Positions 1,601 to 37,569 of a stretch of DNA of 37,840 nt are shown piece by piece. Position 1 is the stretch's first letter. Every line of letters begins with the position of its first letter. This DNA comes from a virus, in UHGV virus genome UHGV-0090851; one strand, 5' to 3'. The notes under the pieces were generated by a model that saw only the letters and a list, made by a program, of their open reading frames with translations, did not search any database and was not told the DNA's origin. The position numbers and the translations under genes are program-made.

Positions 1601-1846
1601 TTATTTCGTTTGAATGCCAGTAACAGGAAATCGTTTATATAGGGTTGATATCCGATCTAACTTCCAGACAATCAACTCATCTCCACTTTTCATCACCGTA
1701 ATTAATTCCTTTAACACAGGGCGATTAGCTGTTCTGCCACTGGCATATTCTTCATAAATTCGCTCACAGCCAGCTGACTCAAGTGCAAGACGTTGCAACT
1801 CTGTATCCTGATGATTTGTTGATACACGAACATACCCGTAAATCAT
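1601..1846 (-). pseudogene. Truncated serine DNA invertase (Pin/Gin/Hin family), N-terminal remnant
   Basis: First ~65 aa (MIYGYVRVSTNHQDTELQRLALESAGCERIYEE...LIVWKLDR) match the invertase catalytic N-terminus including the active-site Ser motif, then the frame degenerates. Too little room before dinI (1457) for a full ~190 aa invertase. Confidence 0.7.
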
Positions 1847-8356: not shown

Positions 8357-8371
8357 GGCGTCACCTCAAAT

Positions 8372-8398
8372 AAAAACCGCGTGTAAACGCGGTTTTTT
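8372..8398 (-). terminator. Hairpin with flanking T-run downstream of the moron gene
   Basis: AAAAACCGCGTGTAAACGCGGTTTTTT: 5-bp GC stem CCGCG/CGCGG with A-run and T-run flanks, so it could terminate in either direction. Confidence 0.45.
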
Positions 8399-8412
8399 AT
8401 TAGGTAATAAAA

Positions 8413-8901
8413 TTAACGATCATAATCAACATTATGAGTATCTATTCTACATGATGAATAAGTAATTCCGCTTTCACCACTAATATTTACGCCAGCCTTT
8501 ACCTTCCCTGTTTTCGTAACATCAACAAAGAATTGCCCTCTTGGCATTTTAAATGCAAAAGAGAAACCAATAATTTCCGAGTCAAAGTTATTTTCATCCT
8601 CACTAATTGGTACAATAAAAGTCAATGGTGCAGATTGTGAGTTATTTTTAAAATCAAAAGCACCAATGCTTTTATTAAACTCGTAGGATGCTTTTTTTAT
8701 TAAAAGAGTTCCACTTGCCGACTTTGCTGGGCATATTACAGACAGTCTATTTATTCCCTCTACATCTAGATCTATATTCTTATCCGCTGAAGTTTTAACG
8801 TTATCTATAAAGTATGTAGCAAGCTGCTTTTCCGTTACTGGCTTCGCAAAGGAGTTTAATGGCAGTCCTACAGCCAACAACAATATAAACATTTTCTTCA
8901 T
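8413..8901 (-). CDS. Secreted/periplasmic protein of unknown function (AT-rich moron in tail module)
   Basis: Start taken at ATG 8899-8901 (SD GGAGAG), giving MKKMFILLLAVGLPLNSFA-KP, a signal-peptidase-I-type signal peptide. Region is clearly AT-rich relative to GC-rich flanking tail genes. Own downstream hairpin. Confidence 0.6.
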   Translation of the reverse strand: MKKMFILLLAVGLPLNSFAKPVTEKQLATYFIDNVKTSADKNIDLDVEGINRLSVICPAKSASGTLLIKKASYEFNKSIGAFDFKNNSQSAPLTFIVPISEDENNFDSEIIGFSFAFKMPRGQFFVDVTKTGKVKAGVNISGESGITYSSCRIDTHNVDYDR

Positions 8902-8965
8902 ATTCTCTCCTACATTCAGCACAAACTTTACCACTCAATAACCCTACTTGATTAAAGTAGTTATA

Positions 8966-10867
8966 TTATCGTCTGAATGGAGAATACCCCACATCGTGCG
9001 TGATTTTCATCAGGGGATCGGCTTTGCCCGGTACATCAATTATCTTCATACCTGGCGGAGCATTCTCGAACGTGACTTTCAGCTCGCTGTGCTGTGTCAT
9101 GGAAGAAGATGGATTCAACAGCGGAACATTGGGTTTGTACTGACTCAGGCTGGCCTGATACTGCTCGTACTCTTTACGATCAAAAAAAGGCGTCCAGTCT
9201 GAAGCCAGAAACAGCCCTTTATTATCCAGCCAGTTAACCGTATCTTCAGGAATAACACTTTCCAGAGTATCTTTAACCGGCTCATACATCAGGGTTCCCA
9301 GAAAACCATATACCCCGGCCTTCCCGATAAAGCCGCGGCCTTTCCCCATCAATCCCGTTTCTGCCGATACCTTCCCCAGCGTACGCATCTCTCTGGTCAC
9401 TGCGGTAATGGATTTGGTAACGTCAGCAACCCATTTGGTTGCCATAAACAGGGCAATCGCTTTCAGAACAGTTTCCCATCCCCCCATCGCCTGCGCCGTT
9501 TCATCCACCACGTGCCAGACTTTTTTTATGACAGGACCTACGGTTTCCCAGTTATCAATAATGAGGTAAGCGCCACCAACCAGAAGAGCAATCAACCCCT
9601 TAGCAGGCGTCATATTCATCACACCGCCGAGAACTTTCATAATTCTGGACAAAGAGCCTGCAGCGGCTCCCACCGTCAGTAAGGCCAGACCGATTTTAGC
9701 AATGGTCTTAACGAGCTCCGGGTTTTCACGAACAAACGTTCTCACTTCCTCAAGGAGCGGTTTTACCGCTTCAAGACCATCATTAACCTCAGGAAGAAAC
9801 GTTTCCCCCAGCGTGGAAGAAATGGCATCAAGTTGATTTTGCAGAAGTAAAAGCTGGTTTTCCGTCGTCGCTGCCCTCGAAGCATATTCCTTCTGCATCG
9901 AACTGCCATACTGCTGGGAATCCGCAACCCGCCTGAAGTTGGTACGCAACAAATCAAGGTTAGTCAGCAGAGGTGCTATCGCGCCCAGAGACTCTTTCCC
10001 GAACAGGGCATTCAGCACAGCTGCCTGTTTTTCTTTAGGCACTTTAGCCATCGCATCCAGTACAGACAGCATGGTGCCCCGGGCATCTTTCTGCATATCA
10101 GCAGCTAATTTCTTCGGATTGATCCGCAGAAAACGCAATGCCTGTTTCTGCGATTTTGTCGCAGAATTTCCCGCGGTCAGGGAAAGCATGAAGTTCTTGA
10201 TCCCTGTGGCGGCAATTTCTGACTCCACGCCCATCCCGGCAATGGTTGCCCCCATTGCCGCGATTTCGCCGGAAGCCACACCTGCAACACCACCTAAAGG
10301 ACCAATACGCGTAACAATATCGGAGATTTTCTTCGCGTTCGCCGGGCCGGTATTACCAAGGTAGTTGATTTTGTCAGCCAGCCCGGCCACTTCATCCTGC
10401 GTCATATTAAACGCAGTACGCCACTGGGCCATCATCTGCCCGGACTCTTCAGCCGTGGTATCAAAGGCCACGCCCATCTTCACCGCATCAGTGGCAAACT
10501 GCATCAGTTCATCACGTGCAATCCCGGCCTGACCGCCAGCCGCCACAATTTCCGCGATCCCGTCTGCAGACATGGGAAGCTCAGTAGACAAAGCGCGTAC
10601 CTGCTCCGTCATGGCCTTAAACGCATCCGGCGTATCCAGACCGTCCACCACTTTGCGGACATCAGCCATCTTCGATTCAAGGGTGATGGCTGATTTTACA
10701 GGGAGTGCCAGTGCCCCCATTATTGCAGTACCCGCCCCGGCAGCGCCCAGAGCAAGGCTGGAGACTTCTTTCTGAAATCCCTTAAGCTGACGCTGCATAC
10801 CTTTAAGCGGGCCGGACAGCCTGTCAACAGCGGTGATGATGGCTTTCAGCTGAAAATTATCAGCCAT
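8966..10867 (-). CDS. Tail tape measure protein
   Basis: 633 aa, Ala/Gly-rich, with predicted helical and hydrophobic segments; located after the chaperone pair; ATG verified at 10865-10867. Confidence 0.85.
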   Translation of the reverse strand: MADNFQLKAIITAVDRLSGPLKGMQRQLKGFQKEVSSLALGAAGAGTAIMGALALPVKSAITLESKMADVRKVVDGLDTPDAFKAMTEQVRALSTELPMSADGIAEIVAAGGQAGIARDELMQFATDAVKMGVAFDTTAEESGQMMAQWRTAFNMTQDEVAGLADKINYLGNTGPANAKKISDIVTRIGPLGGVAGVASGEIAAMGATIAGMGVESEIAATGIKNFMLSLTAGNSATKSQKQALRFLRINPKKLAADMQKDARGTMLSVLDAMAKVPKEKQAAVLNALFGKESLGAIAPLLTNLDLLRTNFRRVADSQQYGSSMQKEYASRAATTENQLLLLQNQLDAISSTLGETFLPEVNDGLEAVKPLLEEVRTFVRENPELVKTIAKIGLALLTVGAAAGSLSRIMKVLGGVMNMTPAKGLIALLVGGAYLIIDNWETVGPVIKKVWHVVDETAQAMGGWETVLKAIALFMATKWVADVTKSITAVTREMRTLGKVSAETGLMGKGRGFIGKAGVYGFLGTLMYEPVKDTLESVIPEDTVNWLDNKGLFLASDWTPFFDRKEYEQYQASLSQYKPNVPLLNPSSSMTQHSELKVTFENAPPGMKIIDVPGKADPLMKITHDVGYSPFRR

Positions 10868-20940: not shown

Positions 20941-21291
20941 TCACTTAAGCCGTTCACGGGCCGTCTTCGCCTTATGACACGGCCAGCACAGACTCTGCAG
21001 ATTACTGTCGGCATCAGTGCCGCCATGTGCTTTAGGGATGATGTGGTCAACGGTTTTCGCTTCACGCGCCACACCGGCACGCAGACATAACTGACACAGG
21101 CCTTTGTCACGTTGCAGCACACGCACACGGATAACATCCCACTTAGAACCATAACCGCGCTGATGACGGGATTGTCCTGACTTGTATTGCTTCCAGCCTT
21201 CGCTTTTGTGGCTTTCGCAGTAGCCTGACGGGTCTGTCGTGGTATTACGGCAGCCGCGAACGCGGCAGGCTTTTGGAGTTCGAGGGGGCAT
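20941..21291 (-). CDS. HNH endonuclease (terminase-associated)
   Basis: 116 aa with Cys-rich zinc knuckles and an HNH-type motif (VDHIIPKAHGGTDADSNLQSLCWPCH); immediately upstream of the terminase. Confidence 0.85.
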   Translation of the reverse strand: MPPRTPKACRVRGCRNTTTDPSGYCESHKSEGWKQYKSGQSRHQRGYGSKWDVIRVRVLQRDKGLCQLCLRAGVAREAKTVDHIIPKAHGGTDADSNLQSLCWPCHKAKTARERLK

Positions 21292-21867: not shown

Positions 21868-22327
21868 TTACCACCCCACCAGCCTCTTTAAACCGGGAAA
21901 TCAGATCACTGATTTTATGTTCATACTGACCATAACCTGCACCAGGTAACGACGCCCAGATATTGCTGCAACGATCGATAGCCTGACGGATATCACCGCG
22001 ATCAATCATCGGTAAAGCGCCACGCTCCTTAATCTGCTGCAATGCCACAGCGTCCTGGCTTTTCGGAGAGAAGTCTTTCAGGCCAAGCTGCTTACGATAG
22101 GCATCCCACCAACGGGAAAGAAGCTGGTAACGTCCGGCGGCTGTTGATTTGAGTTTTGGGTTTAGCGTGACAAGTTTGCGAGGGTGATCGGAGTAATCAG
22201 TGAACAGTTCGCCACCAACAATAACATCATAACCGTGGTTACGTGTCGGTTGTCGCCCGTTATCCGTTCCTTCTGACCATGCCACCATATCCAGGAAAGC
22301 TTTACGCTGGGAATTTAGTGCCTGCAT
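21851..22327 (-). CDS. R: Endolysin, lambda R-like lytic transglycosylase
   Basis: 158 aa; near-identity over long stretches to lambda R as recalled (QRKAFLDMVAWSEGTDNGRQ...RYQLLSRWWDAYRKQLGLKDFSPKSQDAVALQQI). Confidence 0.9.
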   Translation of the reverse strand: MQALNSQRKAFLDMVAWSEGTDNGRQPTRNHGYDVIVGGELFTDYSDHPRKLVTLNPKLKSTAAGRYQLLSRWWDAYRKQLGLKDFSPKSQDAVALQQIKERGALPMIDRGDIRQAIDRCSNIWASLPGAGYGQYEHKISDLISRFKEAGGVVNEVEL

Positions 22328-22330
22328 AAA

Positions 22331-22666
22331 TTACTCCTTCGAGCTACCAAATTTGTTACCGATTACTCGCATTGCAGCCCCACGAATAGCATCGACACCG
22401 ATCAGCCCCACGCCACCACCAATGGCAACAGAAAGCGATTTAGGCCATCCGACATATTCAAGAGCGGATGCAAAGGTCAGCGTCAGAGCGCCACAGAGCA
22501 AAATCTCGAGCGTTTTTCGCTTCCAGCCACCACCACCGCCAAAATAGGCGATGCGCAAACCAGCCATAACGATCGACATAATCACTGCACCCAGCGGTGT
22601 GTCTCCACGCCACCAGCTCTGAAACAACTCCAGCCAGTCCGGCCAGGTATTTGGGTTATGAGGCAT
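22331..22666 (-). CDS. Holin (lambda S-like, class I)
   Basis: Start taken at ATG 22664-22666 (about 111 aa, three hydrophobic segments); the table ORF extends to a GTG at 22762 that overlaps the methyltransferase gene. Confidence 0.6.
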   Translation of the reverse strand: MPHNPNTWPDWLELFQSWWRGDTPLGAVIMSIVMAGLRIAYFGGGGGWKRKTLEILLCGALTLTFASALEYVGWPKSLSVAIGGGVGLIGVDAIRGAAMRVIGNKFGSSKE

Positions 22667-22742
22667 TTCGTCATCTCTCACCTCGCGATATTTGCGGGTG
22701 CTGTGTTGGAAATAAAAAGGCCACGCAACGTGGCCACCAGAA

Positions 22743-23795
22743 TTATTTCCCCACCAGTTCACTTACCTCTTTCACCGTCTGATTAAACCGCTCTGACTCA
22801 AGTTCAACACCTAACGCCCGACGCCCCAGCGCCATTGCTGCTTTTATTGTGGAACCGGATCCCATAAAGAAATCAGCAACCAGATCACCAGGTCGACTAC
22901 TGGCATTGATTATTTGCCGGAGCATATCCGTCGGTTTCTCGCACGGATGTTTACCCGGGTAGAACTGAACGGGCTTATGCGTCCAGACATCGGTATAAGG
23001 CACGGAGACTGATACGGAGAAATAGCGCCGGAGAGATTTAAACTCATCCAGCAATTCAGAATATTTGCGATTCAGTGAATCATAAGATGCCACCAGCTGG
23101 TGGTGTGGTTGTTCCAGTTGTTGTTCCTGAAACTTCTCTGCCGCTATACGGGAAAACAGTGCCTGTAACTTCCGATAGTCAGCCTCATTCGGCAACTGCC
23201 ACTGACTGGCACCAAACCAGTGGGAAACCATATTTTTCTTACCTGTGGCTTCGGCAATTTGTTTTGCCGTTATACCCAGTTCGGCACGAGCATCCCTGAA
23301 ATACGATATCAGCGGTGCCATTATGTGCTGTTTGAGTTCCCTTTCTTTTGCCGCATAGCCGTCACTTTTGCCGCGATATGGCCCCCGGTAATGTTCAGCA
23401 AACAGAACGCGCTCTGTGGCAGGAAAATATGCGCGCAGACTTTCTTTATTACACCCATTCCAACGTCCGGACGGCTTCGCCCAGATGATATGGTTAAGCA
23501 CGTTGAAACGTTCACGCATCATGATCTCAATATCAGATGCCAGGCGATGCCCACAGAACAGGTAAAGGCTTCCGGCAGGTTTCAACACCCGCCAGAACTG
23601 GGCCAGACAGTGGTCCAGCCACTTAAGGTAATCTTCGTCCCCTTTCCACTGATTGTCCCAACCGTTAGGTTTCACCTTGAAGTAAGGCGGATCGGTAACA
23701 ATCAGGTCAATGGAATCATCAGGCAGGGACTGAATAAAATGCAGGCAATCAGCGTTGATTAAATCAACACTGTTTATTTTTACAGTATTTTTCAT
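22743..23795 (-). CDS. DNA methyltransferase, beta-class (DPPY then FxGxG), probably N6-adenine
   Basis: 350 aa; DPPY motif near the N-terminus (LIVTDPPYF) and AdoMet-binding motif near the C-terminus (DFFMGSGST); ATG verified; no adjacent restriction endonuclease. Confidence 0.85.
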   Translation of the reverse strand: MKNTVKINSVDLINADCLHFIQSLPDDSIDLIVTDPPYFKVKPNGWDNQWKGDEDYLKWLDHCLAQFWRVLKPAGSLYLFCGHRLASDIEIMMRERFNVLNHIIWAKPSGRWNGCNKESLRAYFPATERVLFAEHYRGPYRGKSDGYAAKERELKQHIMAPLISYFRDARAELGITAKQIAEATGKKNMVSHWFGASQWQLPNEADYRKLQALFSRIAAEKFQEQQLEQPHHQLVASYDSLNRKYSELLDEFKSLRRYFSVSVSVPYTDVWTHKPVQFYPGKHPCEKPTDMLRQIINASSRPGDLVADFFMGSGSTIKAAMALGRRALGVELESERFNQTVKEVSELVGK

Positions 23796-23945
23796 GGATC
23801 AGTAAGCGTAACTCTGGTAGGCTCACTCTGCTTTTGCGCTAAAGCAGTGGGCCGTGGTTCGCTTGTGACCAGTAAGCATGAGCGAATGGCTGGCAGGTGC
23901 TACCAACACCCACCAGCCGCCCATTTTCACAGCAGGAAACCGCCA

Positions 23946-24173
23946 TTACTGGCAGCGTCTGAATTTATTCCCGTACCCGCCGTTATCCTTCGCCAGACCC
24001 GCCAGAACTAACTGAGTCAGTATTAACTGGCACCGGGCTTCGCTTACTCCGGTAGTTCTCGTCATCATGCGTGGCGTTACCCACTTGTCAGCAGGTAAGA
24101 AATGAAGGACTGCGGCGGCGGTTTCTGTCATATCTTGCTGTTTTAGCATGTCTTTTTCCCTTCTGGTTAACAT
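23946..24173 (-). CDS. Hypothetical small protein, first ORF after tR'
   Basis: 75 aa (or 67 aa from the internal ATG at 24149); possible HTH-like segment; function unknown. Confidence 0.35.
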   Translation of the reverse strand: MLTRREKDMLKQQDMTETAAAVLHFLPADKWVTPRMMTRTTGVSEARCQLILTQLVLAGLAKDNGGYGNKFRRCQ

Positions 24174-24269
24174 GACATACCAATAACTCTTGTCTAAAAA
24201 TCCAGCAAGATAAAAAGTCAGTATTCACGACCACCAGCGTGTTTACTGTACTGCACCAAGTTTACAGGT

Positions 24270-24293
24270 ACAAAAAACCCGCTCAGTGGCGGG
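24270..24293 (-). terminator. Intrinsic terminator tR' (target of Q antitermination)
   Basis: Minus-strand CCCGCCACTGAGCGGG followed by TTTTTT, about 65 nt downstream of the predicted pR' start. Confidence 0.65.
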
Positions 24294-24341
24294 TTCTTAA
24301 ATCTTATCAACGGTAGACATACAAAGCCCATCGTTGGGAAA

Positions 24342-24370
24342 ATCTTATCCATATTTTTTGAAAAATGCAA
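24342..24370 (-). promoter_or_regulatory. Putative late promoter pR' (with qut region)
   Basis: Minus-strand TTGCAT, 17-nt spacer, TAAGAT, immediately downstream of the Q gene and upstream of tR'. Confidence 0.45.
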
Positions 24371-24401
24371 GCATCATGTCGCCATCTTCGGCGAAAATCA
24401 T

Positions 24402-25154
24402 TTATCTTGTCACTTTTCTCAATTGTGTCTCTGCATATGCTTCTTCCTGCCAGCACTTTGTAACCAGTTTATCAATGACATCTGCATATCCTTTGTACCA
24501 CTGATAATCCGTCAGATCCGGTACCAGCTTCTGGACATGATGCCGCGCCAGTGTGGTTGGTAAACGGCTAAACCGGTTTCCATTGCAACGCCCACAAACC
24601 TTATAAACAGGCGCACCATGAAGCCGGGTTCTTTTTTCATCCAGGACAATACCTTTACCCTTACACCCTCTGCACGCTGTGCTGACTTCTCCCTTACCAT
24701 GACAATGCTGACATAGTTCCTTCACCCACTCTTCCTTGATAACAGATTCCCCGCTTCTGGAGTGTTTCACCACTTCGCGCAATACATTATGAAATCCAGT
24801 ACCAGCACAATGCTCACAGCGAGCCTTACTTGCCGCAGACCTGGAATAATCAGCAAAGGCAAAATTCACAAGGTAAGGAATAATCTGTAGCCGGGTTTCT
24901 TCACTCAATTTATTCAATGTCGGGTTATCCAGTGCCATCGCGTAATTGAGCAGACCTTCAATCGCAAACTGAGGATCCTGAACACCAACTTTTGCCAGGA
25001 ATAAGGCAAACCCAAGCGGTGCTTTCGACTGCACCATCCCCTGCGCAGCCATCACATCCGTAATTGTTAAACCACCAGAGCCTGTCGCCGGTGCGTCATC
25101 GCTCAATTTTGGAGATTTTGGGGAGTAATATTTCGGTAAGGCTTCAAGGTTCAT
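24402..25154 (-). CDS. Late-gene antiterminator Q-like protein
   Basis: Several CxxC zinc-ribbon motifs; position immediately upstream of pR'/tR' and the lysis cassette. Start preferred at ATG 25152-25154 (SD GGAGA) over the table's GTG at 25181. Confidence 0.7.
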   Translation of the reverse strand: MNLEALPKYYSPKSPKLSDDAPATGSGGLTITDVMAAQGMVQSKAPLGFALFLAKVGVQDPQFAIEGLLNYAMALDNPTLNKLSEETRLQIIPYLVNFAFADYSRSAASKARCEHCAGTGFHNVLREVVKHSRSGESVIKEEWVKELCQHCHGKGEVSTACRGCKGKGIVLDEKRTRLHGAPVYKVCGRCNGNRFSRLPTTLARHHVQKLVPDLTDYQWYKGYADVIDKLVTKCWQEEAYAETQLRKVTR

Positions 25155-25167
25155 GCTCGTTCTCCAC

Positions 25168-26163
25168 TTACGCCAGTACACCTATTGCCAGCGCACGATC
25201 GATAAAACGAAATATCAGCTCCAGCTGGGAGCCATACTTCTCTTCAAATGCCACGGTATCCGCATGCAGCTCGTCGTGATGCTTTCTGCACAAAGGCAAC
25301 ACAAAAAGGTCATGCGCTTTTGTTCCCATTCCACCCTGACCGTGACCTATCAGGTGGTGGGGATCATCAGCGGGCTTTCCACAACATGCACACGGCTGTG
25401 TCTTAACCCAGCGCGTGTACTTTTCATTAACCCAGCGGCGACGTTTTGGGCGTAACATAAAAGACTCCGGCGACTCCGGATCCACTTTCAGCGCCAGCAC
25501 CTTTTTCGCCTTATCCTGGATGATGCTGGTGGCAGGAACCGAAGGCACAAGGTCACTTTCCCGGGTGACAGACGGCACAACAGGCTTCGGTAATCTCAGT
25601 GCCTTACGGGCTGCACTTTCCGGTAAGGCGTCCGCCAGGTCATTACGAATCAGCCACCAGCACAGTTCCGGCATTGTCACAACGTGACTGTCATCAAAAC
25701 CGAGATCCCGACGCACAACAGACAACACCCAGCGGGCACAGTTATCCGTTGCCATTGATTCCAGCCGTTCCGTGAACTGATCGCGCAGCTGGTTATCGCA
25801 GTGCCAGCACAGACGGATTGCGCCCGGAGCGTGTCGCATTGTTGTCATGTTCTCGCTGTGCCAGTCGGAATGAAGCCACTGGCAGCCTTTTTCACGAAGT
25901 AACCAGCTTTCAAGACATTCCACGCCACCAGCACGACGGATCACTGCCTCATTGCGGAACACGGCCCGAACGGCAGGATCATCCGCCAGCGGTTGTGATG
26001 CCGCGGGAACGGCACCACTGGCGAAAGATGAATAACGTTCCGGCTCAGGCTCCAGCAGGACACGCCCCTGCATAAACAAGGGCATCAGCTCTGAACCTGG
26101 CCTGAACAATACGATCCCCATACGCGGGGCAATTTCAGGGGTCAGTAGTGCTCTCACGGTCAC
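25168..26163 (-). CDS. Conserved lambdoid nin-region protein (DUF968-like, C-terminal Cys/His cluster)
   Basis: 331 aa; CACCGK...HH...H cluster; GTG start; family name from memory only. Confidence 0.5.
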   Translation of the reverse strand: MTVRALLTPEIAPRMGIVLFRPGSELMPLFMQGRVLLEPEPERYSSFASGAVPAASQPLADDPAVRAVFRNEAVIRRAGGVECLESWLLREKGCQWLHSDWHSENMTTMRHAPGAIRLCWHCDNQLRDQFTERLESMATDNCARWVLSVVRRDLGFDDSHVVTMPELCWWLIRNDLADALPESAARKALRLPKPVVPSVTRESDLVPSVPATSIIQDKAKKVLALKVDPESPESFMLRPKRRRWVNEKYTRWVKTQPCACCGKPADDPHHLIGHGQGGMGTKAHDLFVLPLCRKHHDELHADTVAFEEKYGSQLELIFRFIDRALAIGVLA

Positions 26164-26164
26164 C

Positions 26165-26974
26165 TCAATGAACGGTATCGAGCAGCTTTAACAGCTCTGG
26201 GAATCGGGATTCGAAGAAATGCGGCTGCGTCTCGCGCGGATTTGCGGGACTGGTGATGTTCTTGCCGAACATGCAGCCTTTCGCCGTCAGCGACCAGAAT
26301 TTTTTGATGTTGTTAATCGCTGTACGGCTGTATCGTTCGCGCTGTTCGACGATCCCCAGCTTCGCCATCTGGTGATATGCCTGATTAGCCGTAAGGCGGA
26401 TACCATACTGTTTCAGCAGTGCACTCAGCGACAGCGTAGGGCGACTTGAGCCATCAGGCGCGTCAGCAGGAGCATCAATGGCATAGCGCGGTGCCAGATT
26501 CGGTAAGCCAACAGCCTCCTGGAGTTTCTGACAGGCACCAAGCACAGATGAGTTAGACAGGTTTAACTCCCGGCGCATAAAGTCCAGCAGAATCACGCCA
26601 GCCTGCATCTTGTCAGCAGCCTGTCCGGATAACTTTTCCGGCGCGCTGGTTACCATATCGAAAGTACGGATCACCTTCAGATGGAATGACGGGCTGATCC
26701 ACATTGCATAGGCATACACCAGTTCCTTACAGACATACGTTCCCCGTTCATTTCCCCCATGAATCACACTCACCGGGTCAACACCCAAATTCTGGGTGTT
26801 GGTCAATTCATGAACAAGCTCAACAGTTTGTTGGCTGGAAAGAAACTTTCCCGGCTCCTTGGTTCTGGCATTTGCACCAGATGCTACTGCTGCGCGATGC
26901 AGATCGTTCAGGCTGTAACGCCCATAAGCATCACGACGAACTTCAATACCATCAATGACCATCAGATTATTCAT
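26165..26974 (-). CDS. KilA-N domain protein
   Basis: Start at ATG 26972-26974 with strong SD AGGAGA; N-terminus MNNLMVIDGIEVRRDAYGRYSLNDLHRAA typical of KilA-N. Confidence 0.7.
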   Translation of the reverse strand: MNNLMVIDGIEVRRDAYGRYSLNDLHRAAVASGANARTKEPGKFLSSQQTVELVHELTNTQNLGVDPVSVIHGGNERGTYVCKELVYAYAMWISPSFHLKVIRTFDMVTSAPEKLSGQAADKMQAGVILLDFMRRELNLSNSSVLGACQKLQEAVGLPNLAPRYAIDAPADAPDGSSRPTLSLSALLKQYGIRLTANQAYHQMAKLGIVEQRERYSRTAINNIKKFWSLTAKGCMFGKNITSPANPRETQPHFFESRFPELLKLLDTVH

Positions 26975-26993
26975 ACTTCGTTTCTCCTTTTGC

Positions 26994-27383
26994 TCAGGCG
27001 GCTGCACCCGCCGTTTTCTCGTACTTACTGATAGTGATCTCGACCTTCCCTTCCGGGATAACCGGTCCCCACTCCACCAGCATTCTTTTCACCTGTCTGT
27101 CGTCTTCCCACACACCCGCGTGGGTCAGGGCGTCAAACAGCGCCTTGTTATAGTTGTCCAGATCGCGGATCCGGTTATCCGGAGGAAACAACACGATCTC
27201 CACTGAAGCAGGTGCCGACGTTGGTTTTGGCAGACGACGTAACTGCTCAACTATTGCTGCGCACGCCGCGCTCTGAAATTTTCGCCCCGCCGCGCTTATC
27301 AGGCTCTTACCAGAAAATGCCCCTTTGTTGGGGTGTCGCCAGTACGTGTTCACGCTGGGCGGAAAAGGCAGGATCAGCTTCAT
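26994..27383 (-). CDS. rusA: Holliday junction resolvase RusA
   Basis: 129 aa; RusA-like motifs (LPFPPSVNTYW...RDLDNYNKALFDALTHAGVWEDDRQV). Confidence 0.85.
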   Translation of the reverse strand: MKLILPFPPSVNTYWRHPNKGAFSGKSLISAAGRKFQSAACAAIVEQLRRLPKPTSAPASVEIVLFPPDNRIRDLDNYNKALFDALTHAGVWEDDRQVKRMLVEWGPVIPEGKVEITISKYEKTAGAAA

Positions 27384-27706
27384 ACTTTCAGGTCCCTCTC
27401 ATGTAACCAGTGGGTTGCACGCAGCCTTGCGTTTTCCTCACCGGCAAGCAGTGCGCGGATAATCCCGACCGCCTCGCTGTCGTCGTCCTTCACCGCGGTA
27501 TGAAGCGTTATCCCCCGGGCCACGCCACGCTTTATCGTGATGACGCCTTTTTTCTCCAGTGCGCGAAGATGCTCCACCGCTGCATTCACTGAACGGTATC
27601 CCAGCATGGTTGCCACCTCCTGATTGGTTGGCGGAAAGCCACGCTCTTTCTGATAAGAAATCAGCATATCCAGCACCTGCTGCTGGCATTGAGTTAATGT
27701 CGTCAT
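27380..27706 (-). CDS. LexA N-terminal DNA-binding-domain homolog lacking the S24 peptidase domain
   Basis: 108 aa; strong similarity to the LexA winged-HTH as recalled, including the recognition helix (SVNAAVEHLRALEKKGVI vs LexA SPNAAEEHLKALARKGVI); no catalytic domain. Confidence 0.7.
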   Translation of the reverse strand: MTTLTQCQQQVLDMLISYQKERGFPPTNQEVATMLGYRSVNAAVEHLRALEKKGVITIKRGVARGITLHTAVKDDDSEAVGIIRALLAGEENARLRATHWLHERDLKV

Positions 27707-28356
27707 GCCGCCATCTCCCTGACCAGTTTTTCCGCCTGCTGGCGAACCTGCGCCAGAAACGCCTCACCACATGCCTCAAGTTCATCGCGCCCGATGTAGC
27801 TGATTGCCGGTCCCTTCCAGGTCTTGTCAAAAACAGCAATAGCACCAGCGAAAAAAGCTCCTGTCGGTACCTGCTTCTCGTCTTTCGGGATAAACCAGAC
27901 AGGCAGTTCAAAACCAATACGCCCGCGAATAAAAGCAATATGATCTGCATCTTCCGGCCACCACACTTCGCTGGTGGCAGCTTTGATCAGGAAAACATAG
28001 CGCCCGCCCTTATCACGCATGGCACTGGCATGTTTCATGATGTAACGCATGCCGGTGATGTATTGCCCCTCATGCTGACTGGCGCGGCTGTATGGAGGAT
28101 TACCAAAGGCAGCACCTTTAAGCTCCGCAAGGCGTTCTGACCAGTCATGCGCCAGCGCGTTGTCTTCCGCCGTGTAATACGCGGCACATTTGGCGTTATC
28201 ACCGTCAGTGAACAGATCCAGAACAAACGGGCCAAACAGGGTGTTAATTCCCCAGAAAATGTTGTCCGGCGTGCGCCACTGATCACCCACTTCCTTCAGT
28301 TCATGGGCTGGTTTGTTCCGCAGTTCCACCAGCTCCTGGCAATATTTATTACTCAT
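27703..28356 (-). CDS. Phage Dam-like DNA N6-adenine methyltransferase
   Basis: Start taken at ATG 28354-28356 (TAATG overlap with the upstream stop); conserved WRTP near the N-terminus and FGNPPYS catalytic motif. Confidence 0.8.
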   Translation of the reverse strand: MSNKYCQELVELRNKPAHELKEVGDQWRTPDNIFWGINTLFGPFVLDLFTDGDNAKCAAYYTAEDNALAHDWSERLAELKGAAFGNPPYSRASQHEGQYITGMRYIMKHASAMRDKGGRYVFLIKAATSEVWWPEDADHIAFIRGRIGFELPVWFIPKDEKQVPTGAFFAGAIAVFDKTWKGPAISYIGRDELEACGEAFLAQVRQQAEKLVREMAA

Positions 28357-28844
28357 TAAGCCCCCACGTAATTCCCTGACAGATACCACTCATCACCCGA
28401 TACAGCGCGCTTGCTGCTTTTCCGTAAACACTGCTCACGACGCACCAGAAAATTGTTTCGTTCTGGCTGGGAGTGGCTTTCACGGAATGCCGCCATCCAC
28501 ACCGTTGCAGCACGACGGTATAGGCCCCTGGACTCCAGTTCTTCCGCCTGGCGGGTCAGGCACAAAATCACCCGGGGATCGTTAGTGCCGACATAGAAAT
28601 TGCGCACAGGTCTGGTTTCACGAACTGGTTGTGGTTCCGGCTCCTGCGCTCTCTCAGTCAGGCGTGGGAAATGTCTGCGTGTATCTCCTTCACAACGGTG
28701 AGCCACACGCCCACTCTGACGTAACTTGCTTGCTGACTGCAGAACGCGCTGCCGTGAGTAACCTGCAAAAGCATCCGCAATGTCTCCGGAAGTACACCCC
28801 GGATGGGCTTCAATGAATTTCTGAACTTCATTCAAAAGACTCAT
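28356..28844 (-). CDS. Hypothetical protein, possible winged-helix N-terminus, in the helicase-loader position
   Basis: About 162 aa from ATG 28842-28844; follows the replication initiator where lambda P or DnaC-like genes usually sit, with no resemblance to them. Confidence 0.4.
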   Translation of the reverse strand: MSLLNEVQKFIEAHPGCTSGDIADAFAGYSRQRVLQSASKLRQSGRVAHRCEGDTRRHFPRLTERAQEPEPQPVRETRPVRNFYVGTNDPRVILCLTRQAEELESRGLYRRAATVWMAAFRESHSQPERNNFLVRREQCLRKSSKRAVSGDEWYLSGNYVGA

Positions 28845-28846
28845 GA

Positions 28847-29839
28847 TCACCCCCTGAATCCTGCCGGGATCTGGCTGTAGTCCACGTTGTCGTAACTGGC
28901 TTTGAAGTACGGGTCTTCACGTTTTTCTGTGTGCGTGCTGACGGACGGCGATAAGCGCAGGGAAAGCTCATCCCATTTTTCCCGCAACTTCGACGGGCTG
29001 AGCACGTTACGGCACCAGAACGGATCGCGGCTGACGCGGCTGTACATCTCGCAGATTTGTTTGTGAGTACGACCATCCTGCACACACATCAGGCGAATTT
29101 CGTTTGCCCAGGCTGTCCAGTTCGGTTCTTTGGGACGAACCACCTCGCCGTCACATTCGGCGGCCTGCTCGTACAGGGCGATGATTTTTTTCCAGAGCCA
29201 CTGTGCGCAGGTCAAATCATCCTGCGTTCCCCACTGGCGCTTTTTAGGGCTGAATACAACCGCATCAGGATGGCGAGTTAAAAACTCCTGTTCAGCCGTT
29301 TGCGTGTCCGGTTGCGAAGCGTCCGGACGAGAAGAGGTTTTATTCTCTGTAGTAATCTCTGTTGTATTCTCTGTAAGATCATTGGGCCATTTTGACCCGA
29401 TGACAGCGTGTCGTTTTGAACCAATGGATCGTGTCATTTTGCGCCCATCCATCAGGTCACTTTGACCCGATGGAGAAGTGCATTTTGACCTGATCGATTC
29501 GTTCACTTTGACCTCTTCTAAAAGCTCACTTTCATAGTTGATCGTGTAGAAGTTGGTCATGTCACGCTTCGATTTATTGAGTTGCTCGCGACGCAAAACC
29601 CCAAGTGATTTCAGGCTTGCAAATGTGCGTTTCAGAGTGGACTCTGACCAGAACGGAAACTGCTCCAGCCACTGTTCTGTCGTGTTATAAACCCAGCGAA
29701 TTCCGCCATGCTCAGTGCCTGAATTCGTTTCATTCAGCCAGTAATGAAGCTGCTGCAACACAATTGCCTCATTCAGACCAATACGGCATGCAAGATCACG
29801 ATTTATCACAATGGGCTGGGATGTCATTAACAGGCTCAT
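28847..29839 (-). CDS. Replication initiation protein (lambda O-like replisome organiser) carrying the origin
   Basis: 330 aa; iteron array and AT-rich tract lie inside the coding sequence as in lambda O; ATG verified at 29837-29839. Confidence 0.7.
   Translation of the reverse strand: MSLLMTSQPIVINRDLACRIGLNEAIVLQQLHYWLNETNSGTEHGGIRWVYNTTEQWLEQFPFWSESTLKRTFASLKSLGVLRREQLNKSKRDMTNFYTINYESELLEEVKVNESIRSKCTSPSGQSDLMDGRKMTRSIGSKRHAVIGSKWPNDLTENTTEITTENKTSSRPDASQPDTQTAEQEFLTRHPDAVVFSPKKRQWGTQDDLTCAQWLWKKIIALYEQAAECDGEVVRPKEPNWTAWANEIRLMCVQDGRTHKQICEMYSRVSRDPFWCRNVLSPSKLREKWDELSLRLSPSVSTHTEKREDPYFKASYDNVDYSQIPAGFRG
29388..29516. repeat. Origin of replication: six 23-bp-spaced iterons
   Basis: CATTTTGACCCGATGA, CGTTTTGAACCAATGG, CATTTTGCGCCCATCC, CACTTTGACCCGATGG, CATTTTGACCTGATCG, CACTTTGACCTCTTCT, with an AT-rich tract containing short TTCTCTGT repeats at 29337-29385. 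Confidence 0.65.
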
Positions 29840-30008
29840 GACCGACCTCTATTTCCCTGAATTTACGACGAAACTGTTCGAGCGGACTGAAGCATTCATG
29901 TTCATAGCCTTCACGGAGGTAGATAACCCGTTGTGTTTCCGGCTCCCAACGAATGACTCTGACGGGCACTCCGTAGTGATCTTTGAACCAGCGGTTAACT
30001 TGTCGCAA
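29796..30008 (-). CDS. Alternative-frame ORF (TTG start), possible downstream part of a frameshifted gene
   Basis: 70 aa, no ATG; TTG at 30006-30008 preceded by SD GGAGA; protein-like composition. Confidence 0.25.
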
Positions 30009-30187
30009 AGGACTGTCTCCTTCTGCCGGTTGAAATCACCCACAGCCCACTCTGCAAAGCTGTGGGTTACAATTTCCCTGTCACCTGGTACATTCACTGC
30101 ATAGCAATACTCCACCTTCGCTTTTCCACCCGGTACAGGAAGCGCAATCAGTTGCGAGCGACGGTAGTGTGTTGTTAAACTGTTCAT
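29849..30187 (-). CDS. Hypothetical protein (ATGA-coupled to the upstream gene); C-terminal part doubtful
   Basis: 112 aa ORF with ATG at 30185-30187; the last ~50 aa are Ser-rich and low complexity while the overlapping alternative frame looks more protein-like. Confidence 0.35.
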
Positions 30188-30735
30188 GCGTTAGTTTCTC
30201 CACAGACACAAAACGCCACGGCGCCCGGAGCTGCACACTCGCGGGCGTCACTCTTTTCTGGAGCGCAAAAGATTTTGTAGACCAGTGCTGCATGCTCCTG
30301 CAGCTTCGAAATTGACATGTACAGCTCGTCGTTAATTGCTGCCTGCTCGTGTGGTTCCACCACCCCGTCTTCAATTGCTGAACGAATCTGTCTGGAATAA
30401 CTGCCGATCTGTTCAATGACCTCCAGCAGGCGCTGGTTGATATCGGCGTTCTCTACTTCCTCAATTTCAGGAAGTGATACAAACACCCCACCAGCAGACT
30501 GTGCGACAGCATCCGCAATGTGGTGATTGCCAGCAGCACGCTGTAAAACCATTGCCCATCCCAACGGGAAAATCTGATCGCCATCTGCACGAAGGCGGTT
30601 GAATAAAGCGTTCTCTGTTACATCCAGCCAGTCAGCAGCTTCAGCGTAACCCCCTGGCAATGCCGCGATAGTTTTTCTGACAGCTTTCACGTACCACTCA
30701 GGTTGTTTTTCCACTTTCCAATGATGCTTACCCAC
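30184..30735 (-). CDS. YdaT-like protein (CII-position early regulator)
   Basis: 183 aa immediately downstream of the Cro-like gene; GTG start with strong SD AGGAGG; family assignment from memory of Rac-type immunity regions. Confidence 0.5.
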
Positions 30736-30988
30736 GGCTTACCTCCTGTTCCTGTGGTTTAAACCCATTCTGGTTTTGGCTAGATTGAAAACGTGCCGGA
30801 TAAAGAATCTGCATTTCGCTGATTTCACCCTTAAAAAAATTGGCCAGACGTTCTGCAAGATCGATAGATGGAATTTGTTCCAGTCTTTCAATACGACTCA
30901 GCGTCGCTGGATTGACCTGAACGCCCGCAGCAACATGCTGCAAAGTAAATCCGTGCGCCTTACGCACATTCCGTAATGGTGATTGCAT
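30728..30988 (-). CDS. Cro-like HTH regulator (YdaS-like)
   Basis: 86 aa; HTH (FTLQHVAAGVQVNPATLSRIERLEQIPS); divergent from the cI-type repressor; ATG with SD GGAGG. Confidence 0.7.
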   Translation of the reverse strand: MQSPLRNVRKAHGFTLQHVAAGVQVNPATLSRIERLEQIPSIDLAERLANFFKGEISEMQILYPARFQSSQNQNGFKPQEQEVSRG

Positions 30989-31085
30989 ATAACCTCCACA
31001 TATTGCGTGATGAGCATATTATTTCACGCAAATATTTTGCGCAAGTTGATTTGCTTAACGCGCAATAAAGAAATGTAATAAACGC
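30989..31085. promoter_or_regulatory. Immunity switch region: divergent pR / pRM candidates and operators
   Basis: Palindrome TTGCGTGA-N13-TCACGCAA (31003-31031), TTGCGCAA (31037-31044), TTGC-N7-GCAA (31051-31065). Minus-strand promoter TTGCGC-17-TAATAT for cro; plus-strand TTGCTT-17-TGTAAT ending about 6 nt before the cI ATG. Confidence 0.5.
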
Positions 31086-31778
31086 ATGAACATAGGAAAT
31101 CGAGTCAGACAACTTCGCCAGGCGAAGAACATGAAAATCGCCGATCTCGCTGAAGCAATAGGAGTGGATGCGGCGAATATCTCGCGCCTCGAAACAGGTA
31201 AGCAGAAACAATTCACTGAACAAGCCCTGAGTAATATTGCCAGGAGCTTAGGTGTTGATATTGCTGATCTCTTTACCTCAGACCTCAAAAGTAATACTGT
31301 ATGTAAAAACAGTATTAGTGAGGATGTTGCGCAGGTGAAGGATGTATTCCGTATTGAAATGCTGGATGTCAGTGCCAGTGCGGGAAATGGCCTTATCCAG
31401 GGCGGTGATGTCATTGATGTGATTCATGCCATTGAATACAGAACTGATAATGCTGTATCGATGTTTGGTGGACGACCAGCAAATCACATTAAAGTTATCA
31501 ACGTTCGTGGGGACAGTATGTGTCCAACCATTGAGCCAGGAGATCTCATCTTCGTTGATATCAGTATCAATCAGTTTGATGGGGATGGTATATATGTATT
31601 TGGTTTTGATGATAAAATTTACGTCAAACGACTGCAAATGATACCTGATAAACTGCTGGTAATTTCTGATAATCAGATTTACCGCGAATGGGGAATTACC
31701 AGCGAAAACGAACACCGGTTTATGGTCTTTGGAAAGGTCTTAATCAGTCAGTCACAAACCCTTAAGCGACACAATTAA
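31086..31778 (+). CDS. CI-type phage repressor (HTH plus S24 LexA-like peptidase domain)
   Basis: 230 aa; N-terminal HTH (VRQLRQAKNMKIADLAEAIGVDAANISRLETG) and C-terminal autocleavage domain (VRGDSMCPTIEPGDLIFVD...VKRL). Confidence 0.9.
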   Translation: MNIGNRVRQLRQAKNMKIADLAEAIGVDAANISRLETGKQKQFTEQALSNIARSLGVDIADLFTSDLKSNTVCKNSISEDVAQVKDVFRIEMLDVSASAGNGLIQGGDVIDVIHAIEYRTDNAVSMFGGRPANHIKVINVRGDSMCPTIEPGDLIFVDISINQFDGDGIYVFGFDDKIYVKRLQMIPDKLLVISDNQIYREWGITSENEHRFMVFGKVLISQSQTLKRHN

Positions 31779-33733: not shown

Positions 33734-33861
33734 TTTCATTACTGCAAATGCCCCTGCGGGGGCATTTATGGAAACGTAATTAACTCAATAATCACCGGAT
33801 GGTGAGAGCTTCCTTTTAGCAGAATTCAGCGCGGTGCAGCGCATATAAAGTGGAGAACAAA

Positions 33862-34398
33862 ATGTCATTTATTAAAACTTTTTCCGGGAAGCATTTTTAT
33901 TATGACAGGATAAATAAAGACAACATCGATATTAACGATATCGCGGTTTCCCTTTCAAATATCTGTCGCTTTGCCGGTCATCTTTCACACTTCTACAGCG
34001 TCGCCCAACATGCGGTGCTTTGCAGCCGGCTGGTGCCGCAGGAATTTGCTTTTGAAGCGTTAATGCATGATGCAACAGAAGCGTATTGCCAGGACATCCC
34101 CGCGCCACTGAAACGCCTTCTTCCTGACTATAAACGGATGGAAGAAAAAATAGACGCCGTAATCCGTGAGAAATACGGGTTACCCCCGGTTATGAGTACG
34201 CCCGTGAAATATGCCGATCTCATCATGCTGGCAACCGAACGCCGTGATCTCGGGCTTGATGATGGCTCTTTCTGGCCTGTACTGGAAGGCATCCCGGCAA
34301 CAGAGATGTTCAACGTGATTCCACTGGCACCGGGCCATGCCTACGGGATGTTTATGGAACGCTTCAACGAGTTATCGGAATTACGCAAATGCGCATAA
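33862..34398 (+). CDS. yfdR: HD-domain 5'-deoxynucleotidase, YfdR-like
   Basis: Start at ATG 33862 (SD GGAG); H...HD metal-binding motif (AGHLSHFYSVAQHAVLCS...ALMHDATEAY); strong resemblance to E. coli YfdR as recalled. Confidence 0.7.
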   Translation: MSFIKTFSGKHFYYDRINKDNIDINDIAVSLSNICRFAGHLSHFYSVAQHAVLCSRLVPQEFAFEALMHDATEAYCQDIPAPLKRLLPDYKRMEEKIDAVIREKYGLPPVMSTPVKYADLIMLATERRDLGLDDGSFWPVLEGIPATEMFNVIPLAPGHAYGMFMERFNELSELRKCA

Positions 34399-35267
34399 CT
34401 CATGTAGTTAGTTTTTCTGGCGGGAGAACATCTGCATATCTTGTTCACCTGATGGAAGAACAAAGAAAGGCTGGCAATAACGTCTGCTACATCTTTATGG
34501 ATACCGGTTGCGAACATCCGCTGACATACCGCTTTATTCGGGAGGTTGTGAAGTTCTGGGGCATATCGCTAACTGTGTTGCAGGTCGATATAAATCCAGA
34601 GCTTGGGCAGCCAAATGGTTATACGGAATGGGAACCAAAGGATATTCAGACACGAATGCCGGTGCTTAAACCGTTTATGGACATGGTAAAAAAATATGGC
34701 ACGCCATACATCGGCGGCGCGTTCTGCACTGACAGATTAAAACTCACCCCCTTCACAAAATACTGCGATGACCATTTCGGACGAGGGAATTACATCACAT
34801 GGCTGGGTATTCGTGCAGACGAACCTCGTAGGCTGAAACCGAAATCGGGCGTCCGGTATCTTGCCGAGCTATCTGATTTTGATAAGTCGGATGTTATCCG
34901 GTGGTGGCATAAACAACCTTTTGATTTGCAAACCCCGGAGCACCTCGGGAACTGTGTTTTCTGCATCAAAAAGTCCACGCAAAAGCTGGGGCTTGCATGT
35001 AAAGACGAACCTGGTCTGATGCGAGTTTTTAATGAGCTGGTTACAGGTAAACACGTCCGGGATGGTCACCGAAAGACAAATAAAGACGTTATGTACCGTG
35101 GTCATCTGAGCCTTGACGGGATTGCCAGAATGTATGCCGACAGCGACTACAGAAATTTGTATCAGGCGATGGTGCAAGCCAGGCGATTCGATACCGGCTC
35201 GTGTTCAGAGTCATGTGAAATCTGGGGTGATCAATTGGAGTTGAAATTCGAAGAGGTGGTGGCATGA
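34389..35267 (+). CDS. PAPS-reductase-like PP-loop protein
   Basis: 292 aa; N-terminal PP-loop SFSGGRTSAY; C-terminal Cys clusters; overlaps neighbours (translational coupling). Confidence 0.65.
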   Translation: MRITHVVSFSGGRTSAYLVHLMEEQRKAGNNVCYIFMDTGCEHPLTYRFIREVVKFWGISLTVLQVDINPELGQPNGYTEWEPKDIQTRMPVLKPFMDMVKKYGTPYIGGAFCTDRLKLTPFTKYCDDHFGRGNYITWLGIRADEPRRLKPKSGVRYLAELSDFDKSDVIRWWHKQPFDLQTPEHLGNCVFCIKKSTQKLGLACKDEPGLMRVFNELVTGKHVRDGHRKTNKDVMYRGHLSLDGIARMYADSDYRNLYQAMVQARRFDTGSCSESCEIWGDQLELKFEEVVA

Positions 35268-35740
35268 CAACCAAAATTAACTATCAGGCACTGCGTGAGG
35301 CGGCAGAAGCAATAAAAATAGTAGCCACACCACAAAAATTGCTGGCATTTCGTATGAAAGTCACACCGCAGGTTGTGCTGGCGCTGCTGGATGAGCTGGA
35401 AGCAGCAGAGAAGCGAAACGCTGAATTACAAAGCGAGAATGCATACATCCGCAACCGGTACAAAGAACTGGACCTATTAATCGGGAAAAACATTCTGGTC
35501 ATGCAGGCTGCCATTATCGAATGGCAGGCAACTGGCGACGCTAAGAGCGGACTGGCATGGATTTATAACACACTGTTTGGCCCTGGCGAATTACCGGACG
35601 AATCTGAGAAAGATGCTCAGGCCTACTTTAATCGCAAATATGCACCGATTGACGAAAAGCTTATGGCGCTTCACAAGTGGTTTTGGGAACAAAGTGAAGC
35701 CGAGCGCGCCGCCGCCAACATTGGTGTGAAGGGGAAGTGA
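35264..35740 (+). CDS. Ead/Ea22-like protein
   Basis: 158 aa; coiled-coil central region; ATGA overlap with the upstream stop; family assignment from memory. Confidence 0.5.
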   Translation: MTTKINYQALREAAEAIKIVATPQKLLAFRMKVTPQVVLALLDELEAAEKRNAELQSENAYIRNRYKELDLLIGKNILVMQAAIIEWQATGDAKSGLAWIYNTLFGPGELPDESEKDAQAYFNRKYAPIDEKLMALHKWFWEQSEAERAAANIGVKGK

Positions 35741-37251: not shown

Positions 37252-37287
37252 TTTTCCCGGGTGCAGCCGGTTTTGATGGAGAAAATT

Positions 37288-37569
37288 ATGAACACCTTGT
37301 TTTTACTGATGGCTGAATTCAATACCCCTAACATTGAACTCTCAGCAGTTAGCCAAAAGTACTTTGGCATGAGTCCAGCCACGGCAGAAGCAAAAGCAAA
37401 CGCTTGTAAGTTGCCCGTTCCAACATATCGCATCGGCACATCACAAAAAGCAAAACGTTGCATCAATATTCAGGATCTTGCGGAATACATAGACAAAAGA
37501 CGAGAAGAAGGACGTATCGAGTGGGAACAGGTCAGAACAAGCAAACAGAAGGGCAAAGAACATCACTAA
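37288..37569 (+). CDS. PrtN-family / excisionase-like small DNA-binding protein
   Basis: About 93 aa from ATG 37288 (SD GGAG); MNTLFLLMAEF...KLPVPTYRIG...INIQDLAEYID resembles PrtN-type regulators; last gene of the early-left operon. Confidence 0.5.
   Translation: MNTLFLLMAEFNTPNIELSAVSQKYFGMSPATAEAKANACKLPVPTYRIGTSQKAKRCINIQDLAEYIDKRREEGRIEWEQVRTSKQKGKEHH

Follow-up and report, generated by a model that had tools for sequence, protein, structure and literature searches.

Two solitary DNA adenine methyltransferase genes in separate predicted transcription units of an SfV-like Escherichia coli prophage

Why would a temperate phage carry two DNA methyltransferases of unrelated families at two places in its genome, neither with an obvious partner nuclease? 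This question is raised by the UHGV virus genome UHGV-0090851, a stretch of 37,840 nucleotides (hereafter the window), which represents an SfV/e14-like temperate phage integrated in Escherichia coli. An earlier interpretation made from the letters of the window (the sequence-only reading) placed two methyltransferase genes at 22743-23795 and 27703-28356, and these coordinates proved exact, stop codons included, with both genes intact on the minus strand. We consider it likely that they encode two solitary N6-adenine methyltransferases in separate transcription units, namely an early enzyme directed at GATC (MT2) and a late, non-specific one (MT1), which together provide the phage with self-directed anti-restriction; the specificities, timing and role in this reading are those that we infer below.

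Identity of the two methyltransferases

The late-operon enzyme is defined by the following features:
22743-23795, minus strand: MT1, a beta-class N6-adenine DNA methyltransferase of the M.EcoGII family (350 amino acids), orthologue of SfV orf48
23682-23693, minus strand: catalytic motif IV, DPPY (amino acids 35-38 of the translation), aligning with the DPPY of PDB entries 9c3u and 8urk
22848-22874, minus strand: S-adenosylmethionine-binding motif I, DFFMGSGST (amino acids 308-316 of the translation), aligning with the FMGSG of solved beta-class enzymes

The MT1 protein matches the Pfam family PF01555 (N6_N4_Mtase; e-value: 1.6e-42; residues 29-341), with its central region unaligned to the short members of that family, and phrog_67 (e-value: 1.5e-102). 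It furthermore aligns to solved beta-class enzymes, including M.RsrI, M.MboIIA and CcrM, and this alignment, together with a motif order in which motif IV is followed by the central region and then motif I, assigns it to the beta class. The sequence-only reading had the class right, but missed the M.EcoGII-type identity and with it the probable lack of specificity among adenines. MT1 is identical to the orf48 product of Shigella flexneri phage SfV at 345 of 350 positions, while a full-length BLASTP comparison with M.EcoGII gives 281 identities over 349 positions (81%; 2 gaps). Global alignments yield an identity to M.EcoGII of approximately 80%, a figure that is approximate because the M.EcoGII sequence was machine-read from a PDF with a few reading errors; for Anc291, a reconstructed ancestor, the value is 88%, and for SUPREM 69%. 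The comparison sequences are those of Supplementary Table S1 of PMC11551740. Within the helical target-recognition region (amino acids 160-237), 60 of 78 residues are identical to M.EcoGII (77%), and identity to Anc291 is 86%.

M.EcoGII acts on adenine whatever the surrounding sequence (PMC5778455), and the enzyme and its variants, SUPREM among them, are largely non-sequence-specific (PMC11551740). The identities given above thus place MT1 within the sequence range reported as non-specific, and MT1 is most probably an M.EcoGII-type enzyme that would show little or no sequence preference in methylating adenines. It shares with M.EcoGII and M.EcoGI of E. coli O104:H4 C227-11 the DPPY motif, the target-recognition region, the FxGxG motif, the length (349-350 amino acids) and the prophage location. 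It is set apart from M.EcoGII by a divergence of approximately 20%, and it is likened to that enzyme by sequence, with the genomic context compared through a Stx2a-phage homologue that is 91.5% identical to M.EcoGII. The same divergence, which reaches 23% in the target-recognition region, could be taken to indicate a sequence-specific orphan Type II methyltransferase, and the labels that PADLOC and PHROGs give to MT1 go no further than a Type II or a generic DNA methyltransferase. We regard this as improbable, given the level of identity to three sequences of a group in which M.EcoGII and its variants largely lack sequence specificity and the absence of any extra domain from MT1.

The second enzyme is defined by the following features:
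27703-28356, minus strand: MT2, a phage Dam-family (PF05869/TIGR01712) N6-adenine methyltransferase, 217 amino acids from its ATG, orthologue of SfV dam
28090-28101, minus strand: catalytic motif IV, NPPY (amino acids 86-89 of the translation), nearly invariant across 30 aligned family members
28204-28224, minus strand: motif-I-like strand VLDLFTD, of which D47 is invariant in alignments A2-A4, down to approximately 30% identity

The mechanically called open reading frame of MT2 extends to a GTG at 28389. Its product matches PF05869 (Dam; e-value: 1.1e-45; 155.7 bits against a cut-off of 28.1) and the NCBIfam model TIGR01712 (phage_N6A_met; 256.5 bits against a cut-off of 97.05), and is identical at 215 of 217 positions to the product of the SfV gene annotated as 'dam: DNA adenine methylase'. 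The family matches of both MT1 and MT2 far exceed what chance would give. The NPPY motif follows the acidic, motif-I-like VLDLFTD after about 40 residues in a gamma-like core, and D25, W27, T29, P30, D47, N54 and N86-S90 (NPPYS) are invariant or nearly invariant in family alignments that extend down to approximately 30% identity. In common with the PF05869/TIGR01712 family, MT2 has a small single domain with DxWxTP, an invariant aspartate and NPPY, and has no separate target-recognition domain between its motifs.

Single-sequence (phmmer) and profile searches of MT2 against the PDB chains, those of E. coli and T4 Dam included, gave no meaningful match and detected no solved structure of any PF05869/TIGR01712 member, and the Pfam scan gave no PF02086 match. 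A structure model built from a 30-sequence alignment (down to approximately 33% identity) reached a pLDDT (predicted local distance difference test) value of 94.9 and a predicted template modelling score of 0.90; an earlier model, built from 21 close relatives, was discarded (pLDDT 42). On the strength of the later model we are confident in the prediction that MT2 has a class I S-adenosylmethionine-dependent methyltransferase fold with an N6-adenine core and is without a close solved relative. MT2 is a compact N6-adenine methyltransferase in which the motif-I-like strand precedes motif IV, and it is unrelated in sequence to both MT1 and canonical Dam. The canonical enzymes (E. coli Dam, T4 Dam and DpnM; alpha class, PF02086) carry DPPY rather than NPPY and a target-recognition domain inserted between motifs I and IV, which MT2 lacks, and share no detectable sequence similarity with it. 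The label 'Dam-like' given in the sequence-only reading therefore stands for the Pfam family name and for the probable GATC specificity, but not for any detectable relationship to E. coli or T4 Dam. The proposal that the two enzymes are of different classes is borne out by their unrelated families and opposite motif orders (motif IV then I in MT1, motif-I-like then IV in MT2), and the catalytic motifs survive alignment in each case, with DPPY and DFFMGSGST retained in MT1 and NPPY in MT2.

SfV reportedly encodes multiple DNA methylases, of which the orf-41 product is said to have been experimentally confirmed as a Dam methylase (by Allison et al. in 2002). The PF05869/TIGR01712 family also includes the Dam proteins of T1, HP1 and VT2-Sa, which, like that of SfV, are reported to methylate GATC. 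Staphylococcal phage dam genes share 33-36% identity with MT2, and PamA, an NPPY methyltransferase of a staphylococcal phage, methylates GATC and alters the expression of host virulence genes (PMC12435837); at 141 amino acids PamA is the shorter protein, MT2 extending further at the C-terminus. By its near-identity to SfV Dam and its likeness to PamA, MT2 is most probably a GATC methyltransferase.

Placement in the late and early-right operons

A 6.6 kb block that holds both methyltransferase genes (22300-28900) recurs at 99% identity in prophages of several E. coli chromosomes, and SfV matches it at 97.5% at the DNA level. The Prokaryotic Genome Annotation Pipeline (PGAP) annotation of a prophage block with 99% identity describes a lambdoid-regulated myovirus, with cro-like, replication, nin-like, Q, lysis, terminase, head and tail genes following one another on the minus strand and the repressor and early-left operon on the plus strand; the window has an equal gene order. 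The features surrounding MT1 are as follows:
24402-25181, minus strand: Q-type late antiterminator gene (PF03589 Antiterm, e-value: 2.6e-53; phrog_127, e-value: 1e-108)
24342-24370, minus strand: late-promoter-like site just downstream of Q, read from the sequence as TTGCAT, a 17-nucleotide spacer and TAAGAT
24272-24294, minus strand: tR'-like intrinsic terminator, ACCCGC-CACUGA-GCGGGU followed by a U run (folding free energy -13.9 kcal/mol; z -3.9)
23946-24149, minus strand: small conserved open reading frame directly 5' of MT1, 67 amino acids from its annotated start (phrog_331, e-value: 3e-26)
22710-22735, minus strand: intrinsic terminator between the MT1 stop and the holin start, from the terminator scan (folding free energy -12.5 kcal/mol; z -3.05)
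22331-22666, minus strand: lambda-family holin gene, the first lysis gene downstream of MT1 (PF05106, e-value: 5.9e-27; PGAP annotation of the homologous prophage)

MT1 is thus the first long gene of a predicted Q-dependent late unit, and in the prophage it stands behind a terminator. The late-promoter-like site is assigned this function by its position, and the order of Q, promoter, MT1 and holin agrees with the late-operon location suggested in the sequence-only reading. The annotation of SfV (U82619) places a putative rho-independent terminator at the site homologous to 24272-24294 and another at the equivalent of 22710-22735, which in the window sits in the 76-nucleotide gap that follows MT1. 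In SfV, orf48 and dam (orf-41) occupy positions equal to those of MT1 and MT2, and the differences include a few amino-acid substitutions, the divergent middle of the small open reading frame before MT1 and the -35 hexamer of a proposed dam promoter.

Equivalent arrangements occur beyond SfV. In N15, a promoter and a terminator precede gp52, and a further terminator, equivalent to the one behind MT1, separates it from the holin gene. In the Stx2a phage Stx2_95, Q is followed by a small open reading frame, a gene annotated as 'DNA methylase', tRNA genes, stx2AB and the holin gene, so that the methyltransferase lies between Q and stx2. Both proteins resemble MT1 (N15 gp52, 55% identity; Stx2_95 methyltransferase, 80%) and, like it, fill a slot that follows the promoter and terminator and precedes the holin gene, the Stx phages differing from the window in the tRNA genes and stx2AB that lie between methyltransferase and holin. 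The slot of the first long gene in the Q-dependent late transcript is conserved among SfV, the Stx phages and N15.

The small open reading frame at 23946-24149 has no Pfam match. SfV (orf47) and Stx2_95 have orthologues of it directly before their methyltransferase genes, and its product may serve the enzyme as a dedicated regulator or partner. The three versions have a common N-terminus (MLKQQDMTETA) and C-terminus (RCQLILTQLV.AGLA) around a divergent middle. At the MT1 start codon the sequence contains no clear Shine-Dalgarno motif. A GATC site is located two bases 5' of this codon, at 23797-23800 (CTGATCCATG), probably by coincidence.

MT2 lies upstream of Q, among the following genes:
28847-29839, minus strand: O-like replication initiator (phrog_391, e-value: 1.3e-101)
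28356-28850, minus strand: PerC-like gene (PF06069)
25168-27706, minus strand: nin-like genes between MT2 and Q, coding for a protein with a LexA DNA-binding domain, a RusA resolvase, a KilA-N protein and a DUF968/HNH protein (Pfam and PHROGs)

The O-like and PerC-like genes on one side of MT2 and the nin-like genes and Q on the other confirm its location in the replication/nin region, as had been supposed. The PerC-like reading frame ends where that of MT2 begins, the stop and start codons overlapping in TAATG, and the genes downstream of MT2 have overlapping or abutting reading frames through to Q. A separate promoter proposed for dam in SfV is weak, and its -35 hexamer is altered in the window. 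The TAATG coupling and the lack of conservation of this promoter fit transcription of MT2 from the early operon, and the simplest reading is that MT2 belongs to the early-right (PR-type) transcript. The anatomy of the two operons accordingly supports the notion that the methyltransferases are expressed early and late, respectively, the timing itself being inferred.

The junction between the PerC-like gene and MT2 (28354-28372, minus strand) lies just 3' of a run of five G residues, and the protein database contains many 380-amino-acid PerC::Dam 'fusions', most of them singletons. One extra G in the run suffices to create such a fusion and is the simplest explanation, so that these proteins, dismissed here as genuine fusions, probably reflect errors of sequencing or assembly or, less probably, a natural frameshift variant.

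The SfV annotators' proposal of a separate dam promoter also bears on a different explanation, by which one or both enzymes would regulate host genes epigenetically in the lysogen (lysogenic conversion), as PamA, an NPPY enzyme that acts on GATC, does with virulence genes. This is highly improbable: E. coli already methylates GATC, so that MT2 would add nothing in a dam-plus host, and the proposed promoter is the weak and unconserved one described above. For MT1, enzymes of the M.EcoGII type are silent in the lysogen and harmful when expressed, and the gene lies behind a terminator in a Q-dependent unit.

Orphan status and predicted roles

No restriction endonuclease family was found among the neighbours of the two genes or the other screened open reading frames of the window in scans with Pfam, PHROGs, NCBIfam and PADLOC, and none is named in the PGAP annotation of the 99% identical prophage block. 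The search of the flanks for a cognate endonuclease thereby upholds the orphan status that the sequence-only reading had given to both genes. The nucleases that are encoded in the window comprise RusA, the DUF968 protein (25168-26163), a 116-amino-acid HNH protein (20941-21291) beside the terminase genes and a DEDDh exonuclease of the early-left operon. Among them, the DUF968 protein matches HNHc_6 marginally (26.9 bits; cut-off 26.6), and the 116-amino-acid protein has weak PADLOC matches to HNH-type restriction enzymes (e-value: approximately 1e-5), which would permit either to be imagined as the nuclease of a cryptic restriction-modification system. We find this barely credible, and both candidates were rejected. 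The DUF968 protein, as well as RusA and the KilA-N protein, has no PADLOC restriction-enzyme match, the HNH gene occupies the usual slot of packaging-associated HNH proteins next to the terminase genes, and an enzyme that methylates without specificity could not supply the modification activity of a system that recognises defined sites. A DUF968 gene (ydfU) is also present in the Qin prophage of K-12, where it is not known to have a methyltransferase neighbour, and this too counts against a restriction-modification pair.

The positions of the two genes suggest a division of labour. MT2 would be made from the early-right operon immediately after the replication genes, and from this position would act while phage DNA replicates faster than the host Dam can follow. 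By keeping GATC sites fully methylated, it could protect them from GATC-cleaving restriction enzymes and, with less certainty, may also avoid the action of MutH or SeqA on hemimethylated DNA. MT1 would be silent in the lysogen, where a non-specific enzyme is expected to be toxic, and would be made only once the cell is committed to lysis. Late and Q-dependent, it would load the progeny DNA with N6-methyladenine before packaging, a modification that may shield this DNA, once it enters the next host, from many restriction systems of Types I, II and III.

The predicted behaviour of MT1 follows that of M.EcoGII, which is prophage-borne, is unexpressed in the lysogen and is deleterious when expressed constitutively (PMC5778455). 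A review agrees on this silence and toxicity and groups the enzyme with Mom of phage Mu (PMC12707154). Mom is a functional analogue of MT1 as predicted here, with late adenine modification, toxicity upon mis-expression and broad protection from restriction. Mu Mom is, however, a protein unrelated to MT1 and brings about an acetamido modification rather than methylation. The slot of MT1 fits the lysis-only expression proposed in both PMC5778455 and PMC12707154.

Several observations weigh against this account of the two enzymes. The divergence of MT1 from M.EcoGII by approximately 20%, including 18 of the 78 target-recognition residues, makes some sequence preference possible. The late-promoter-like site is absent from the calls of a consensus promoter scan, which missed it because its -35 hexamer matches at only three of six positions. 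The host already possesses Dam, so that what the phage gains from MT2 is hard to see; moreover, should MT1 methylate all adenines at the late stage, MT2 would be redundant for packaged DNA, and its role would have to be an early one, which is a guess. The replication module of SfIV is similar to that of the window and has no MT2-type methylase (PMC3851460), while Stx2_95 retains an MT1 homologue and has no dam-type gene annotated in the stretch from its replication genes through Q. The absence of MT2 from SfIV and from this stretch of Stx2_95 indicates that MT1 and MT2 are independent and dispensable modules.

The existing Dam of the host and the location of MT2 directly after the replication genes of the early operon are also consistent with a possible, though unlikely, alternative in which the methyltransferases, and MT2 in the main, serve transactions of the phage DNA, such as escape from SeqA and MutH or a methylation-dependent packaging or gene control of the kind found in P1. 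Many phage orphan methyltransferases may regulate the viral cycle, and the pac site of P1 needs Dam methylation (PMC12707154). The 154 GATC sites in the window are, however, unremarkable in frequency (observed/expected 0.79, like other four-base palindromes) and in spacing, nothing points to a Dam-controlled site, and the SfIV replication module manages without a methylase. None of the alternatives considered here is favoured by the data, and self-directed anti-restriction by an early and a late enzyme remains the reading that we prefer.

Other features, distribution and significance

The early-left operon of the window contains a further group of genes that bears on MT2 through fusion proteins found elsewhere:
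33850-34398: YfdR-like HD-domain 5'-deoxynucleotidase, just 5' of the NinC-like gene
34389-35267, plus strand: NinC-like PP-loop protein of 292 amino acids, with a partial match to PF01507 (PAPS_reduct, 3'-phosphoadenosine-5'-phosphosulfate (PAPS) reductase) and a PADLOC match to SspD (e-value: 2.7e-15)
35264-35740, plus strand: open reading frame downstream of the NinC-like gene, with a 4-nucleotide overlap, a PADLOC match to DpdH (e-value: 1.2e-37; residues 46-147) and a weak Ead/Ea22 Pfam match

The NinC-like protein is 54% identical to the NinC protein of a P22-like phage. In PHROG 33262 it covers positions 2-279 (e-value: 1.8e-92) and MT2 covers positions 283-492 (e-value: 4e-96). Fusions of a NinC-like domain to PF05869 are represented by a 479-amino-acid Vibrio phage protein, deposited as 'Dam methyltransferase with PAPS reductase domain', and by a cluster of 510-amino-acid proteins (21 distinct members, drawn from many contigs), while the reverse order (Dam, then NinC-like) is seen in one protein of 571 amino acids. 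The order NinC-like then Dam is thus backed by many independent sequences and the reverse order by a single protein. These fusions raise the thought that MT2 and the NinC-like protein, which is PAPS-reductase-like and SspD/DndC-related, could constitute a two-component DNA-modification module, which we consider very doubtful. A near-identical prophage (L002) contains MT2 and no annotated PAPS-reductase-like gene, which counts against an obligatory pairing. A NinC-like gene beside the PF05869 gene of phage Chi was also ruled out, the neighbours of that gene showing neither a PAPS-reductase match nor similarity to the protein of the window. Were the module real, its product could differ from plain N6-methyladenine at GATC. 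We know of no function assigned to NinC of lambda, which would in that event gain its first testable role.

Another combination is found in Providencia prophages, where a PF05869 Dam sharing 67-75% identity with MT2 is fused to a C5-cytosine methyltransferase (653 amino acids; 18-member cluster; P0126, P0128 and P0133). These fusions are double-specificity orphan methyltransferases.

Several features of the window lie apart from the methyltransferase genes:
50-1147, plus strand: tyrosine integrase, next to the tail-fibre genes at the window's left end
8413-8934, minus strand: open reading frame of 173 amino acids in a low-GC island (phrog_5586; no PADLOC match)
37261-37569, plus strand: excisionase-like open reading frame at the far right end of the early-left operon (phrog_1300)

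The low-GC island (8001-9000; 41% against approximately 55-58% in its flanks) is situated between the tape-measure and DNA-circularisation genes and, with the open reading frame it contains, constitutes a tail-module insertion of the moron type. An 81-amino-acid open reading frame at 1601-1846 (minus strand), which starts MIYGYVRVS, resembles by eye a truncated serine invertase and has no family match. An Rfam scan of 22000-31500 returned zero matches.

At least 80% of the 6.6 kb block is found in 605 of the 5426 complete E. coli genomes, or about one in nine. Homologues of MT1 occur in 95 phage records and in 1148 of these genomes, and MT2-like genes in 1725. The pair is already annotated in SfV, standard pipelines call both of its genes methyltransferases, and it is common, so that it is an ordinary one; the finding adds little. 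Furthermore, the MT1 family was biochemically characterised in 2018, and orphan modifiers expressed upon exit from the cell have already been described in the review literature. The idea that enzymes of the M.EcoGII type are switched on only at lysis, and so protect the outgoing DNA, is likewise a published one, for which this type of prophage offers a convenient system.

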